From: a virus
Lineage: Duplodnaviria > Heunggongvirae > Uroviricota > Caudoviricetes
Reading direction: 5' to 3' (one strand)
DNA: 42,050 nucleotides
Virus record (IMG/VR): IMGVR_UViG_2609459854_000002
Under the pieces are notes generated by a model. It was given only the letters and a program-made list of their open reading frames with translations, was not told the DNA's origin and did no database searches. Each line of letters starts with the position of its first letter. The stretch's first letter is position 1. The translations under genes were made by a program, and so were the position numbers. Below are positions 24,375-40,632 of this stretch, in pieces.

Positions 24375-24450
24375 TGGTGCTGGTTAACGGACTTGAACCG
24401 CTACCCATTCGCTTACAAGGCGACTGCTCTACCATTGGAGCTAAACCAGC
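24375..24450 (-). tRNA. tRNA, anticodon UGU (Thr) by manual fold
   Basis: Minus-strand sequence GCTGGTTTAGCTCCAATGGTAGAGCAGTCGCCTTGTAAGCGAATGGGTAGCGGTTCAAGTCCGTTAACCAGCACCA folds as a cloverleaf with 7-bp acceptor stem, canonical D and T arms, encoded CCA. Anticodon call made by hand. Confidence 0.6.
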
Positions 24451-24455
24451 ATATT

Positions 24456-24530
24456 TGGCGGGACAGCGTGGACTCGAACCACGATAAGAAGGTTAACAGC
24501 CTTCCGTAATGACCTTTATACGACTGACCC
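24456..24530 (-). tRNA. tRNA, anticodon GUU (Asn) by manual fold
   Basis: Minus-strand sequence ending ...CGTGGTTCGAGTCCACGCTGTCCCGCCA with perfect anticodon stem GAAGG/CCTTC and loop CUGUUAA; one mismatch in acceptor stem and an imperfect D stem. Confidence 0.5.
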
Positions 24531-24575: not shown

Positions 24576-24593
24576 CTTACCCTCTAATTATGG

Positions 24594-25112
24594 CTAAATG
24601 GCTAATTGCATGTCAAGGCTTTTAACAGCAACATGCTTAACTTTCTCAACACGTTTACGCATTTTAAAAGCATTTTGCATTGGTTGGTACAAAACAAATA
24701 ATGACGCTTTCAGGATATCGTCAATTTCGTTTCTACAGGTTGCCAGTGAAGGTTTTCTCCATCCCTCGCCACCGCGTCCACACATCTTGCGTGGCTTTGC
24801 AGTCGCGTGATAGTAGGATGCAATTGCTCTCTTAGATGAACCATGAGCGTAGTAGCTGAGGAGGATGCCAAAGGCTTTCTTGTCAATGTACATGACGGAA
24901 TCGACGACCTGAGAAATCAACATTCCATCATCATCATTGCACATTGGCCTTGTCATAACTCTTCCCGGCTCTACGCTCTCCATGAACTTCGCTATTACGC
25001 TGCTCATGCGCTTTTCAAGACGACCTGAATAAACCCATGCGCCCCACAGTTCAAGCCAGCCATTCAGCCACTCGTGCTGTTCTTTGGTGAGGTTTAGCTC
25101 TCTTATGCTCAT
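24594..25112 (-). CDS. Late-gene antiterminator, Q-like (phage 21/82-type family; tentative)
   Basis: 172-aa ORF directly upstream of the tRNA/lysis block and downstream of ninH, the position of Q; sequence not lambda-Q-like. Family call is mainly positional. Confidence 0.5.
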   Translation of the reverse strand: MSIRELNLTKEQHEWLNGWLELWGAWVYSGRLEKRMSSVIAKFMESVEPGRVMTRPMCNDDDGMLISQVVDSVMYIDKKAFGILLSYYAHGSSKRAIASYYHATAKPRKMCGRGGEGWRKPSLATCRNEIDDILKASLFVLYQPMQNAFKMRKRVEKVKHVAVKSLDMQLAI

Positions 25113-25297
25113 CGTCTTCCCTTTTTGCCTGGCGTGACCATCAGGACGCCGTTAACTATTACGTGACGCTCGCCTTTGCTGTCTCGGTTGTACTTGAGCA
25201 CTGTTCCTCTTGCGCAGGAAAGCATCCTTGCCACTTCGGTCTGATTGCCTCGTGTCTGGATAAGAAGCTCTGGTATCGTTTGAATTGTGGCGTTCAT
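25109..25297 (-). CDS. ninH: NinH-like protein
   Basis: MNATIQTIPELLIQTRGNQTEVARMLSCARGTVLKY... resembles lambda NinH as recalled. Confidence 0.7.
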   Translation of the reverse strand: MNATIQTIPELLIQTRGNQTEVARMLSCARGTVLKYNRDSKGERHVIVNGVLMVTPGKKGRR

Positions 25298-25656
25298 ACG
25301 TTCTCCAGTTCGGTGATTTTTATTCCAAGCCTTCCGCCTGGTACTTTCACACCACGAATTACGCGAATGTCATCGAATTGCTCGTCGTCTTCCGCAAATC
25401 CGGCGTGGATAAGGGAGTCGAGTAAACCTTTCAGGATGTTATCGAGGTCGCGGCGGCGGGAGTCTGGAACGTCTGCGATGACTTTGATACGGAGTCGTGA
25501 TTTGGTGAAAATGTCTAACTTGAGTTGGCGGATGATTTGCTGAACGTCTTTTCGGTATTTCTGGCCTTTATCGCTGATGTAGTATTGGCTTCCCCGTCTT
25601 CGCCAGTAGGAATTCACCGATGGCGGGTATGGAAGCACAAACTGATATTCGTTCAT
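25294..25656 (-). CDS. rusA: RusA-family Holliday junction resolvase
   Basis: 120 aa; motifs ...PPSVNSYW... and ...DSRRRDLDNILKGLLDSL... match RusA as recalled. Confidence 0.85.
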   Translation of the reverse strand: MNEYQFVLPYPPSVNSYWRRRGSQYYISDKGQKYRKDVQQIIRQLKLDIFTKSRLRIKVIADVPDSRRRDLDNILKGLLDSLIHAGFAEDDEQFDDIRVIRGVKVPGGRLGIKITELENV

Positions 25657-25943
25657 GGTTTAATCTTCCCCTCCTTCAGCAGTATCGCCTGCGTCCTGAT
25701 CACGCCTTCGAGGTGGTAAAGTCTGGCGTCTTTGTTGTCGAGATTATGGGTGCGTCGGTCGATCTCCGCGTGGCAGTCACTACAAGCCCATGCACCGATC
25801 AGGTCGTCAGGCTTCATCCCCGTTCCGCAAATTCCAGCCATCCGGTAATGTGCCAGAACTGTAGTTTCAGGATTGCCATTGCATACGCCGTAAATACGTA
25901 CCTGACATTCTCTTCCGCGTGCTTCTTTGCGTAGGTTAGCCAT
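25653..25943 (-). CDS. DUF1364-like Cys-rich nin-region protein
   Basis: 96 aa with C...C and CSDCH motifs; resembles a conserved lambdoid nin-region family from memory. Confidence 0.5.
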   Translation of the reverse strand: MANLRKEARGRECQVRIYGVCNGNPETTVLAHYRMAGICGTGMKPDDLIGAWACSDCHAEIDRRTHNLDNKDARLYHLEGVIRTQAILLKEGKIKP

Positions 25944-26212
25944 TATGGTTCGCTCCAGTAATTCTCAATTGCAGCAGCCATTCTCTGCATCCACTCTGCC
26001 AGCTTTAACGCGGCTTCTCTTTCAGAACCACATTTAGGGAAATCCTTCATTTCCATGCTGGCCTTATATGTTCTGAATGCCAGGTCTCCGGTAATAACCA
26101 GCTCCTGATCAAGCACAGAGCGTTTATTCCGGTGCTGAACGTAATAGACAGATTCAGTCCGCATTTCTTCTCTGTCTTTTTTGAATGAAATAAGCTCAGA
26201 GAAATCACTCAT
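25943..26212 (-). CDS. Hypothetical nin-region protein
   Basis: 89-codon ORF in operon orientation; no family recognised. Confidence 0.45.
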   Translation of the reverse strand: MSDFSELISFKKDREEMRTESVYYVQHRNKRSVLDQELVITGDLAFRTYKASMEMKDFPKCGSEREAALKLAEWMQRMAAAIENYWSEP

Positions 26213-26387
26213 CGTCTTCTTCCTCGTACATTGAGCTATTCGGATCGCTCATCAGTTCTGCACAGCAATCGGAGCACACATGAACTTCCAGCACATGCAG
26301 CTTCTGACCGCAGTTAGCGCACGTTAAAGCCCGCTCGACGCTTTCTTTCTGGTATTGAAGGGATTGGGATGGGCTAAGCATTAACAA
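26205..26387 (-). CDS. Small zinc-ribbon-like protein
   Basis: 60 aa with two CxxC pairs (CANCGQ ... CSDCC) and acidic tail. Confidence 0.4.
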   Translation of the reverse strand: MLMLSPSQSLQYQKESVERALTCANCGQKLHVLEVHVCSDCCAELMSDPNSSMYEEEDDE

Positions 26388-27324
26388 CCTCCATACAAAC
26401 TTTCACGAATGCCGTTGCTACTTCTGCATTGATTGCGTTTCCATATCCAATAATTCGCTGATCTTGATTGCGCTTTGCCATTCTTCCCAGTGTGGACTTG
26501 CCTCGTCCCAAGCTTTTGGCAATGCCATTAACCATCGGGAATGAGCCGGGTCTAACTGGACGATATTTTTCATCTCTACAGTAAAGCCAGTCTGCATCTC
26601 TCCAGAAGCCGTTAACCGGTAATGGGTACATAGCTTCACCGTCCCGGGAAGTTTCAAGCAGATTCTTGGGGTTCCGCTCTTGTCTTTTCCGCTGTAGCAA
26701 TGCGTTGAACCTGTTGCATCGTTCGCTAAAGGAGTTTGCCATCCAGCTAGTCTCACGCATCCAGATAGGTTCTGAATTCCCCTGCGTGTCTCTGGCTGAA
26801 AGTTGATATTTGTCGTTGGAGTAGGCCACCCAATACAATCGCTGCCTGATGTGCGGAGAACCGAAGCCCGCAGCGCAAATATCGGTACCTGCAGAGGTGT
26901 AGTTCGCACCTTCCAAGTCAGTTTGTACAAGGTCGAGCCAAGCGAGGCCGTCTGCGCTTGCAACCTGTTCGCCAATAACGATGCCAGGATTGCATTTTTC
27001 AATAAGCCAGAAGAATGCCGGCCATAAGTGCCGCTCGTCATCAACCCCTTTTCCTTTGCCTGCCGAGCTGAAAGGTTGGCATGGGCAACTTCCTGTCCAG
27101 ATACTCTTGTTGTCTGGCCATCCTGCTTTTCTAAGTGCATAGCTCCAAACTCCGATTCCTGCAAAAAAGTGGTGCTGGGTAAATCCTCGCAAATCACCTG
27201 GTGTGACATCTTCAATACTCCTTTCATCTACATAACCGGGGGCAATTTCTCCAGCTTCAATTAAGTTACGCAGCCATTGCGCTGCATACGGATCTATTTC
27301 GTTGTAATACGCAGTCATCGTCAT
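26374..27324 (-). CDS. DNA (cytosine-5)-methyltransferase (orphan, no adjacent restriction gene seen)
   Basis: Contains FAGIGV (AdoMet-binding motif I-like) and PCQPFS (catalytic motif IV PC dipeptide); start placed at ATG adjacent to ninE stop. Confidence 0.8.
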
Positions 27325-27497
27325 TTCCTCGCACGATGTCTTAGCCACCGGATATCCCACAGGTGAGCCGTGTAGTTGAAGGTTTTTACGTCAGATTCTT
27401 TTGGGATTGGCTTGCGTTTATTTCTGGAGCGTTTCGTTGGAAGGTATTTGCAGTTTTCGCAGATGATATCGGTGAAACTTCGTCGCTGTCGCCTCAT
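27321..27497 (-). CDS. ninE: NinE-like protein
   Basis: [58 protein letters not shown] matches lambda NinE as recalled. Confidence 0.7.
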
Positions 27498-27937
27498 GCC
27501 GCCCTGTCTCCCCATCTCGCTTTCCACTCCAGAGCCAGTCGCGCTTCGTCTGACCACTTAACGCCACGTTCTGTACCGAATGCCTGTATAAGCTCTAATA
27601 GCTCCGCAAATTCGCTTACACGCATCCTGCTGGTTGACTGGCCTATTACCACAAAGCCATTCCCGGCAAGGTTAGGAACAACATCCTGCTGCTTTAATGC
27701 TGCGGTAAACACACACTTCCAGCTTTCTGCATCCAGCCAGCGACCATGCCATTCAACCTGACGAGAGACGTCACCAAGGCAAGCCCAAAGCTTTCGATTC
27801 TGGTCTAAGCTGCGGTTGCGTTCCTGAATGGTTACTACGATTGGTTTGGTTGGGTCTGGAAGAATTTGCTGTACCGCGTGAATAGCGTTCTGCTGATGGA
27901 TGGGGCTTCTTAGTTCAAACGTTAGTTTCCTCACCAT
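27494..27937 (-). CDS. ninB: NinB (Orf) recombination mediator
   Basis: 147 aa; near-identical to lambda NinB as recalled (…[56 protein letters not shown]…). Confidence 0.85.
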
Positions 27938-39365: not shown

Positions 39366-39584
39366 ATGTACTTGACACTTCAGGAGTGGAACGCACGCCA
39401 GCGACGTCCAAGAAGCCTTGAAACAGTTCGTCGATGGGTACGCGAGTGCAAGATATTCCCTCCTCCGGTTAAGGATGGAAGAGAGTATCTGTTCCACGAA
39501 TCAGCGGTAAAGGTTGACTTAAATCGACCAGTAACAGGTAGCCTTTTGAAGAGGATCAGAAATGGGAAGAAGGCGAAGTCATGA
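39366..39584 (+). CDS. xis: Excisionase
   Basis: MYLTLQEWNARQRRPRSLETVRRWVRECKIFPPPVKDGREYLFHESAVKVDLNRPVTGSLLKRIRNGKKAKS, essentially lambda Xis as recalled. Confidence 0.9.
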   Translation: MYLTLQEWNARQRRPRSLETVRRWVRECKIFPPPVKDGREYLFHESAVKVDLNRPVTGSLLKRIRNGKKAKS

Positions 39585-40632
39585 GCGCCGGGATTTACCC
39601 CCTAACCTTTATATAAGAAACAATGGATATTACTGCTACAGGGACCCAAGGACGGGTAAAGAGTTCGGATTAGGCAGAGACAGGAGGATAGCAATTACTG
39701 AAGCAATACAGGCAAACATTGAGTTATTTTCAGGACACAAACACAAGCCTCTGACAGCAAGAATCAACAGTGATAATTCTGTTACGCTACATTCATGGCT
39801 TGATCGCTACGAAAAAATACTCGCCAGCAGAGGAATCAAGCAGAAGACACTCATAAATTACATGAGCAAAATTAAAGCAATAAGGAGGGGTCTGCCTGAT
39901 GCTCCACTTGAAGACATCACCACAAAAGAAATTGCGGCAATGCTTAATGGATACATAGACGAGGGCAAGGCGGCATCAGCCAAGTTAATCAGATCAACAC
40001 TGAGCGATGCATTCCGAGAGGCAATAGCTGAAGGCCATATAACAACAAACCCGGTCGCTGCCACTCGCGCAGCAAAATCAGAGGTAAGGAGATCAAGGCT
40101 TACGGCTGACGAATACCTGAAAATTTATCAAGCAGCAGAATCATCACCATGTTGGCTAAGACTTGCAATGGAACTGGCTGTTGTTACCGGGCAGAGAGTT
40201 GGTGATTTATGCGAAATGAAGTGGTCTGATATCGTAGATGGATATCTTTATGTCGAGCAAAGCAAAACAGGCGTAAAAATTGCCATCCCAACAGCATTGC
40301 ATGTTGATGCTCTCGGAATATCAATGAAGGAAACACTTGATAAATGCAAAGAGATTCTTGGCGGAGAAACCATAATTGCATCTACTCGTCGCGAACCGCT
40401 TTCATCCGGCACAGTATCAAGGTATTTTATGCGCGCACGAAAAGCATCAGGTCTTTCCTTCGAAGGGGATCCGCCTACCTTTCACGAGTTGCGCAGTTTG
40501 TCTGCAAGACTCTATGAGAAGCAGATAAGCGATAAGTTTGCTCAACATCTTCTCGGGCATAAGTCGGACACCATGGCATCACAGTATCGTGATGACAGAG
40601 GCAGGGAGTGGGACAAAATTGAAATCAAATAA
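39562..40632 (+). CDS. int: Tyrosine integrase (lambda Int-like)
   Basis: 356 aa, same length as lambda Int; N-terminus MGRRRSHERRDLPPNLYIRNNGYYCYRDPRTGKEFGLGRDRRIAITEAIQAN matches as recalled; overlaps xis as in lambda. Confidence 0.95.
   Translation: MGRRRSHERRDLPPNLYIRNNGYYCYRDPRTGKEFGLGRDRRIAITEAIQANIELFSGHKHKPLTARINSDNSVTLHSWLDRYEKILASRGIKQKTLINYMSKIKAIRRGLPDAPLEDITTKEIAAMLNGYIDEGKAASAKLIRSTLSDAFREAIAEGHITTNPVAATRAAKSEVRRSRLTADEYLKIYQAAESSPCWLRLAMELAVVTGQRVGDLCEMKWSDIVDGYLYVEQSKTGVKIAIPTALHVDALGISMKETLDKCKEILGGETIIASTRREPLSSGTVSRYFMRARKASGLSFEGDPPTFHELRSLSARLYEKQISDKFAQHLLGHKSDTMASQYRDDRGREWDKIEIK

Follow-up and report, generated by a model that had tools for sequence, protein, structure and literature searches.

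A dual-coding C5-cytosine methyltransferase gene in a lambdoid Escherichia coli prophage, predicted to specify a two-polypeptide enzyme

Two enzymes, M.AquI and M.EcoHK31I, are named as exceptions among the otherwise monomeric C5-cytosine DNA methyltransferases (MTases) (PMC2836561, PMC3404938). M.AquI, specific for CYCGRG, consists of an alpha chain with motifs I to VIII and a portion of the variable region, and a beta chain with the rest of that region and motifs IX and X (PMC3404938). M.EcoHK31I, the YGGCCR-specific two-polypeptide enzyme of E. coli HK31 (Lee, Kam and Shaw, 1995), has motifs I to VIII, motif X and a predicted target-recognition domain (TRD) in its alpha chain and motif IX in its beta chain, and both chains are needed (PMC2836561, PMC3404938); silent removal of the beta start codons abolished methylation in vivo (PMC2836561). 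Long same-strand overlapping genes, one embedded in the other, are also known in viruses, as cases of overprinting (PMC8227390). In this report, we examined a C5 MTase gene located at 26374..27324, on the minus strand, of the viral sequence record IMGVR_UViG_2609459854_000002, a lambdoid E. coli prophage; the whole 42,050-nucleotide (nt) stretch that was analysed is referred to below as the window.

Our main finding is that this gene contains a second, conserved open reading frame (ORF) in the +1 frame, lying entirely within the first. We designate as alpha the product of the annotated frame (frame A), and as beta that of the embedded frame (frame B). The locus is probably an orphan two-polypeptide C5 MTase of the M.EcoHK31I type, expressed from a single dual-coding stretch in the nin operon. 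All features of the gene described below are on the minus strand.

Dual coding and the selection mosaic

The alpha ORF (26374..27324) encodes 316 amino acids (aa), from an ATG at 27324 to a TAG at 26374-26376; the Prokaryotic Genome Annotation Pipeline (PGAP) places its start at 27318, two codons downstream. The beta ORF (26418..27209) encodes 263 aa, its frame being stop-free over 269 codons (26418-27227), with an upstream in-frame ATG at 27227. Beta matches phrog_1008 (E 3e-23) and phrog_31772 (E 2e-18).

The two ORFs recur together. Among 167 related loci, 81 of them viral, 6 from distant phages (K1G, Xanthomonas PhiXhv-18, Rhodobacter RcBigEagle, Seunavirus SalP219, Burkholderia vB_RY5 and cyanophage Cy-LDV1) and 80 from bacterial genomes, homologues of both were present in every case, always with beta in the +1 frame of alpha (81/81, 6/6 and 80/80). 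Identity ranges from 51 to 100% for alpha and from 45 to 100% for beta in the 81 viral loci. In the beta frame, stops are confined to the extreme ends. The 80 bacterial loci come from Gamma-, Beta-, Alpha-, Delta- and Epsilon-proteobacteria, and stops in their beta frame fall only within the first 7 or the last 5 match codons.

Either frame is almost always interrupted when the codons of the other are shuffled synonymously. For ten diverse loci, each subjected to 1,000 alpha-synonymous shuffles, the +1 ORF had a mean length of 85-150 codons, compared to 265-323 observed; the observed length was reached by 0-2 of 1,000 shuffles per locus, and the +1 frame acquired an average of 7-13 stops. Conversely, beta-synonymous shuffles introduced 6-10 stops in frame A, against 0 observed. 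The content of frame B behaves likewise: when diverged loci are translated in the +1 frame and compared with the window beta, the scores are 526-773, and they fall to 163-248 (standard deviation about 35) after synonymous shuffling.

Selection along the DNA was followed with per-frame Nei-Gojobori (NG86) ratios of nonsynonymous to synonymous divergence (dN/dS) in 550 pairs at 80-95% identity, with codon-phase entropy in 46 representatives of less than 93% nucleotide identity, and with synonymous resampling. An OLGenie-type test was set aside, since a +1 overlap leaves almost no sites that are synonymous in both frames. Ahead of beta, at alpha codons 1-38, dN/dS is 0.06 in frame A and 6.1 in frame B, and at codons 40-75 the values are 0.05 and 2.2, respectively. 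At codons 76-165 they are 0.27 and 0.77, and alpha synonymous divergence drops there from 0.52 to 0.18. The relationship is inverted at codons 166-236 (1.87 in A, 0.15 in B) and again at codons 263-285 (1.39 and 0.25). In between, at codons 240-262, both frames give 0.38, the nonsynonymous and synonymous proportions (pN and pS) both being very low, with a pS of only 0.085. Past the end of beta (codons 303-316), the values are 0.18 in A and 1.9 in B. Frame-A constraint is found overall at alpha codons 1-165, 240-262 and 286-316. Codon-phase entropy draws a similar map: the most variable position is the third of alpha at alpha codons 1-135, 241-255 and 286-315, and the first of alpha, which is the third of beta, at codons 166-240 and 256-285.

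Three segments deserve closer description. The alpha linker at codons 166-236 (26617..26829), which is poorly modelled as a protein (predicted local distance difference test score, pLDDT, 26-33), appears to be passenger sequence in frame A; the same DNA encodes repeats of a GWxTP motif in beta. It is followed by a doubly constrained segment, alpha 240-251 (26572..26607), with many invariant alpha residues and overlapping beta 198-208 (26586-26618), which stands out from synonymous resampling with z = 3.7. In the stretch that overlaps alpha motif IV, finally, where 27021-27080 encodes a 20-residue beta segment, beta identity is 0.74, compared to the 0.39 expected from alpha constraint alone (z = 4). 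The same resampling gives no sign of selection on beta residues 1-37 (z about 1), in contrast to later beta segments (z about 3-3.7). Roughly 95 alpha codons and 37 beta codons are passenger sequence, stop-free but not conserved as protein. As far as alignments and resampling can establish it computationally, it is close to certain that both frames are protein-coding and that purifying selection acts on them in a mosaic pattern.

Beta also has a start signal of its own. A Shine-Dalgarno sequence, AAGGAG (27218..27223), precedes the ATG at 27209-27207 with an 8-nt spacer. It is made from alpha codons E34, R35 (AGG) and S36 (AGT), the DNA ahead of beta reading GAT GAA AGG AGT ATT GAA GAT GTC, so that the whole beta start is accommodated within alpha codons 34-40. 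In all 47 relatives of the enterobacterial clade, R35 is encoded by AGG or CGG, the common codons CGT and CGC being absent; S36 is AGY, never TCN; and D39, the source of the AT of the beta ATG, is GAT. At the control codon D33, six codons upstream of D39, GAT and GAC are used freely. These codon choices indicate that, in this clade, the beta start signal is independent and is conserved through the choice of synonymous codons.

The two predicted chains

Alpha is the predicted catalytic chain. It matches the Pfam family PF00145, 'C-5 cytosine-specific DNA methylase' (E 4.3e-14, 53.1 bits for a cut-off of 22 bits), over profile positions 64-211 of 324 only, that is, motifs IV to VIII; its match to phrog_363, 'DNA methyltransferase', spans the whole protein (E 1.6e-91). 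In its AlphaFold2 model, confidence is high for residues 1-172 and for a helix at 300-315 (pLDDT 86), and drops under pLDDT 50 at residues 173-295. A Foldseek search with the model of residues 1-172 retrieved M.HhaI (1.5e-8), M.HaeIII, DNMT2 and DNMT1, with E values from 1e-8 to 1e-5.

The motifs can be followed along alpha. Motif I, the S-adenosylmethionine (AdoMet) loop FFAGIG (residues 53-58; 27151..27168), has an invariant FAGIG at 54-58. Motif IV, PCQ (residues 81-83; 27076..27084), contains the catalytic C82, and none of its three residues (P81, C82 and Q83) varies in an alignment of 121 sequences. Motif VI, GEQV (26962..26973), aligns to the ENV of M.HhaI, with E119, Q120 and V121 invariant; the EQV at 119-121 replaces the canonical ENV, asparagine being changed to glutamine throughout the alpha family. 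Motif VIII is RQR at 160-162 (26839..26847), within HIRQR at 158-162 (canonical QxRxR), which aligns to QKRER of M.HhaI; R160 and R162 are invariant. Motif X, GNAI (residues 295-298; 26431..26442), all four residues of which (G295, N296, A297 and I298) are invariant, is accompanied by the C-terminal helix.

As a side observation, the part of alpha at residues 5-58 (window 27151-27312) has motif I on the third and not the first beta-strand, preceded at the N-terminus by a unit resembling motifs II and III, AYYNEID...DERSIEDV, of which AYYNEID occupies 27292-27312. The order suggests a local permutation, with II/III ahead of I, relative to canonical C5 MTases. TIGR00675 places alpha residue 6 at model position 25, the AlphaFold2 topology points the same way, and a weak profile alignment pairs alpha 41-68 with M.HhaI 5-32. 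When this arrangement was tested pairwise against a Bacillus homologue (described below), motif I gave z = 2.9, and II/III was not significant (z = 0.1).

Between motifs VIII and X, alpha offers little. To our knowledge, a TRD and motif IX are present in this interval in every monomeric C5 MTase, and are needed by every characterised one. Pfam and the M.HhaI profile alignment gave no alpha match past motif VIII. The interval (166-236 and 263-285) is variable in length, has a low pLDDT and contains no conserved TRD or motif IX; it is reduced to some 70-80 residues in the short members of the family (K1G, 274 aa; SalP219, 283 aa; Bacillus, 254 aa). This stretch is unconstrained in alpha, whereas purifying selection acts on its +1 frame, and beta is most likely where the recognition module resides. 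A sequence-only reading of the window, made before this analysis, had proposed, with no strand given, an ordinary one-chain C5 MTase with an identifiable TRD. The catalytic half of that proposal is borne out by the PF00145 match on the minus strand, by the intact catalytic Cys, Glu and Arg motifs and by the invariance of the motif IV, VI and VIII residues on alignment in the 121 sequences; the embedded ORF had been overlooked, and the TRD is not to be found in the annotated protein.

Beta has a characteristic conserved core, recognizable from E. coli to Rhodobacter and the cyanophage. In order, it includes L.SSL.SRL, then GSTLY.LTWK...TP.G....LRAS..RTS, and continues with one to five (G/A)W.TP...D repeats and with RLTASGE.LTGS.A.M..., which leads into a C-terminal motif-IX-like segment. 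In the window, the GWxTP repeats are GWPTP (26817-26831) and GWQTP (26730-26744), both within the DNA of the alpha linker. The motif-IX-like segment (26505..26558), in which H223, W226, L227, P231 and W234 are invariant, overlaps alpha codons 263-285 (26470-26538), where the alpha frame is unconstrained. It is kept in E. coli, Rhodobacter, Burkholderia and the cyanophage, and in Bacillus as NPVFWEEMMGFPTGWT. The segment reads L-N/D-P-x4-W-L-M-G/A-L-P-x2-W and stands at the place where motif IX is expected; the motif IX pattern, L-x-P-x5-(L/V)-M-G-x-P-x2-(W/Y), is seen in it by eye, a resemblance and not a demonstrated homology, as no profile method ties beta to motif IX.

The beta family is large and mostly unannotated. 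A protein search returned 2,784 homologues, typically of about 295 aa with an identity of about 50%; they lack Pfam domains and are called 'hypothetical' where named. An exhaustive search with a beta hidden Markov model (HMM) against 1.84 billion cluster representatives gave, at E <= 1e-3, matches to 14,591 clusters (at 50% identity), and at the stricter E <= 1e-30 still to 6,830; the best 150 representatives all match from their own N-terminus. Beta is also present in 243 phage records, from phages of Escherichia, Klebsiella, Salmonella, Rhodobacter, Burkholderia, Xanthomonas, Pseudomonas and Vibrio and from a cyanophage.

The arrangement reaches beyond the Proteobacteria. The Bacillus tropicus plasmid NZ_CP085401.1 carries a 254-aa 'dcm' gene (1294-2058) with the canonical motif order and neither TRD nor motif IX. 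Within this gene lies a 168-aa +1 ORF (1481-1987) containing LLTWKVSVTP, FPTPTASD and NPVFWEEMMGFPTGWT, which aligns to the beta profile with an hhalign probability of 85% (E 6e-6). The overlap of alpha and beta therefore also exists in elements of Firmicutes, this 'dcm' gene having a beta homologue embedded in its +1 frame.

Annotation of the pair is inconsistent. Both ORFs are annotated in K1G and PhiXhv-18, only beta in vB_RY5 (as a 'putative metabolic enzyme'), part of beta and no alpha in Cy-LDV1, and only alpha by PGAP in E. coli MB1159; some GenBank E. coli genomes list beta as a 'hypothetical protein'. The K1G beta is labelled 'Mte8-like protein' in GenBank, a name that a protein search with K1G beta found only in K1-phage entries and that the literature search met just in passing. 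Two loci have additional features: that of a Pseudodesulfovibrio metagenome-assembled genome holds two alpha/beta copies, and in Burkholderia phage vB_RY5 (3073-5008) the genes after the pair encode another 'site-specific DNA-methyltransferase' and a PAPS reductase-like protein, so that a larger DNA-modification cluster is possible.

Proposed assembly of the enzyme and rival explanations

How the two products could form one enzyme can be outlined as follows. Frame A would yield alpha, with a Rossmann AdoMet-binding and catalytic domain (motifs I, IV, VI and VIII), followed by an unconstrained linker, then a conserved element of small size and finally the helix of motif X. Frame B would yield beta, started from its own Shine-Dalgarno sequence and ATG. 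Beta would supply what alpha lacks, namely the GWxTP repeats and the motif-IX-like segment, as a proposed small-domain subunit. By analogy with M.EcoHK31I, the chains are expected to assemble non-covalently into the active enzyme, which may act on phage DNA as it replicates in lytic growth, the methylation serving to protect this DNA from restriction by the host. We consider it likely that beta is the obligatory subunit for DNA recognition or motif IX; alpha-beta association, enzyme activity and an anti-restriction role are all inferred. The constrained pieces follow one another along the DNA as A (I to VIII), B (repeats), both frames, B (motif-IX-like) and A (X). A single-chain C5 MTase has its motifs in the same order, which suggests that in an ancestral gene the TRD-IX segment was displaced into another frame.

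Several observations weigh against this interpretation. Alpha falls below the cut-off of the NCBIfam dcm model TIGR00675 (42.7 for a threshold of 100.65) which, with the replacement of ENV by EQV, means that its activity is not guaranteed. The beta profile matched no PDB sequence at E <= 10; the 121 beta members gave only scattered chance matches in Pfam, none consistent and none to PF00145; NCBIfam gave no match to beta; and AlphaFold2 models beta alone poorly (pLDDT 47). The identification of a 'motif IX' and a 'TRD' in beta draws on a pattern seen by eye, on gene position and on analogy, and it departs from the M.EcoHK31I literature, which puts the TRD in alpha, the prophage alpha being largely unconstrained between VIII and X and the only sequence conserved at the TRD position being that of beta. 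Lastly, the beta start is less uniform in distant genomes, with GAT at D39 in 46 of 57 and AGG or CGG at R35 in 35 of 57, and may sit elsewhere in these.

Among the alternatives, the one that survives best, although we judge it unlikely, is that beta is a real protein unrelated to methylation, such as an overprinted anti-defence or regulatory protein, and that alpha acts by itself or together with a host factor. Overprinted accessory genes are indeed common in viruses, beta has no detectable similarity to Pfam families or solved structures, and the conserved part of its N-terminal half (44-120) has no counterpart in canonical MTases. Against this hypothesis, alpha is without a TRD and motif IX, which the characterised C5 MTases all need, and the constrained pieces of beta fall exactly at the TRD and motif IX place between VIII and X, with a C-terminal consensus, L-N-P-x-x-x-x-W-L-M-G-x-P-x-x-W, that resembles motif IX by eye. 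Moreover, the pairing of alpha and beta is invariant from Proteobacteria to Bacillus, and M.EcoHK31I, the only characterised gene of the same layout, needs both chains.

Programmed ribosomal frameshifting, from A to B or from A to B and back to A, could instead produce one chain, separate alpha and beta proteins not being functional products. The constrained segments, joined in the order in which the DNA presents them, do reproduce the canonical order of a single chain. Yet, in essentially all loci, frame A remains open through more than 90 unconstrained codons and frame B through its first 37 or so; such open passenger stretches are needed only if each frame is read from end to end, which disfavours frameshifting. 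Beta also has its conserved Shine-Dalgarno sequence and ATG, and no fusion of alpha-like and beta-like parts in a single frame was found in 171 ORFs of 170 loci or in the best 150 representatives of the HMM search. We regard this mechanism as very improbable.

The weakest alternative, an ordinary single-polypeptide orphan C5 MTase whose +1 ORF is a by-product of alpha or functionally irrelevant, agrees with the above-threshold Pfam match of alpha alone, with its motifs I, IV, VI, VIII and X and with the alpha-only PGAP annotation, but we give it almost no credence, as frame B has coding-type periodicity and a dN/dS of 0.15-0.25 exactly where that of alpha exceeds 1, the +1 frame is open in 167 of 167 loci compared to at most 2 of 1,000 shuffles (so that the 'by-product' part is already contradicted), the beta start signal is held by synonymous choice, and alpha is devoid of a conserved TRD or motif IX.

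Genomic setting, wider meaning and known systems

The window is a P22-like lambdoid E. coli prophage, with an integrase gene and the host gene ybhC at its right end: the lambda-type integrase (39562-40632) is followed by a pectinesterase-family, ybhC-like host gene from 40767 to the end of the window, which marks the prophage-host junction. The MTase gene lies among tightly packed nin genes on the minus strand. Its upstream neighbour is ninE (27321..27557; Pfam NinE, E 1e-42), the TGA stop of which overlaps the alpha ATG as ATGA, and its downstream neighbour is ninF (26205..26381; Pfam NinF, E 9e-14), which overlaps it too, the ninF ATG (26381) starting 8 nt ahead of the alpha stop. On the same strand are ninB (27494-27937), a YbcO/DUF1364 gene (25653-25943), rusA (25294-25656), a phrog_1258 gene, ninH and a Q-like antiterminator gene. 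Most lambdoid phages and E. coli prophages have ninX (DUF2591) in the ninE-ninF interval, where the MTase replaces it here; this MTase allele is carried by 11 of 5,426 complete E. coli genomes.

A tR2-like terminator hairpin (28601-28577, minus strand) lies just downstream of a dnaB-like helicase gene and upstream of the MTase gene, and no convincing promoter was found directly ahead of the latter. These two features lead us to infer that the MTase gene is a member of the delayed-early nin operon driven from pR, and is expressed in lytic growth and not in the repressed prophage. Further along the minus strand, a sigma-70-like promoter with an 11/12 match (24587-24616) follows the Q-like gene, in a pR'-like position, and two phage-borne tRNA genes, tRNA-Thr(tgt) (24375-24450) and tRNA-Asn(gtt) (24456-24530), are located between the Q-like gene and the holin and lysozyme genes.

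No restriction endonuclease was found among the ORFs of 23-42 kb (the structural half, 1-23 kb, was not scanned protein by protein), nor in the PGAP annotation around the copy that E. coli MB1159 carries, which is 99.8% identical to this gene. Copies linked to a restriction endonuclease were also sought in the phage and plasmid contexts that we inspected, and none was found, the plasmid copies all being in phage-like contexts. The sequence-only reading was right about the placement of the gene in the nin operon, with ninB, ninE and rusA nearby, and about its orphan status in these surroundings. It had offered two functions, protection of phage DNA from host restriction and modification of host DNA in the lysogen; the second is now the weaker, as the gene is probably a lytic one.

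It is conceivable, although we would not put it at even odds, that GWxTP-containing beta proteins are the sequence-recognition subunits of a very large and mostly unannotated class of heterodimeric C5 MTases of phages and prophages, which originated by loss of frame of the TRD-IX segment. If so, the class would comprise at least 14,000 clusters (at 50% identity), from Proteobacteria to Bacillus, and the repeats, through their number and sequence, would determine specificity. In that case M.EcoHK31I would be one characterised member, with an assignment of the TRD to alpha that needs revision, and few same-strand embedded overlaps known from prokaryotic viruses would equal this one in length and in breadth of conservation.

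The practical side concerns annotation. RefSeq/PGAP, Pfam and NCBIfam see only alpha, and thousands of phage and prophage MTase genes are probably annotated as half an enzyme; prediction of specificity from the annotated alpha-type protein, or its expression alone, would be expected to fail. Orphan phage C5 MTases are candidates for anti-restriction functions, and a second chain with variable GWxTP repeats may provide a handle on their specificity. In addition, a same-strand overlap of about 790 nt that combines a clean mosaic of constraint with deep conservation could be a tractable model for the origin and persistence of dual coding. We found no literature on this overlap in phage or prophage C5 MTases other than the M.EcoHK31I precedent, within an incomplete coverage, and the name M.EcoHK31I was absent among the matches listed in our protein searches.

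The closest known system remains M.EcoHK31I, which was compared to the prophage locus by its published architecture. In both, two polypeptides are encoded, and the alpha gene encloses the complete beta ORF in a different frame. The M.EcoHK31I alpha chain, of about 309 aa, is similar in size to the 316 aa of the prophage alpha, and the N-terminal 40 or so residues of its beta matter little for catalysis, just as residues 1-37 of the prophage beta are unconstrained. The two systems differ in that M.EcoHK31I belongs to a restriction-modification system, whereas the prophage gene is an orphan in a phage operon; in that the prophage beta is longer (263 aa) and contains GWxTP repeats; and in that motif I of the prophage alpha follows the II/III-like unit. 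The layout itself is already known but rarely recognised; what gives the case its interest is how large the unannotated beta family is, and how unusually clean and ancient the overlap.

M.AquI resembles the prophage locus in being a C5 MTase in two chains, which must associate. Its split is sequential, however, whereas the prophage beta lies wholly within alpha in another frame, with motif X retained by alpha. With the monomeric enzymes M.HhaI, M.HaeIII and Dcm, the prophage locus shares the catalytic fold of the large domain, motifs IV, VI, VIII and X and the AdoMet loop; unlike it, they are single chains in which the TRD and motif IX are in frame and motif I is N-terminal. Viral overprinting, finally, offers the same picture of two proteins from one stretch of DNA, with complementary conservation and a start codon arising inside the host gene, but the prophage differs from it in that the two products are apparently parts of one enzyme and that the 792-nt overlap is conserved across bacterial phyla.

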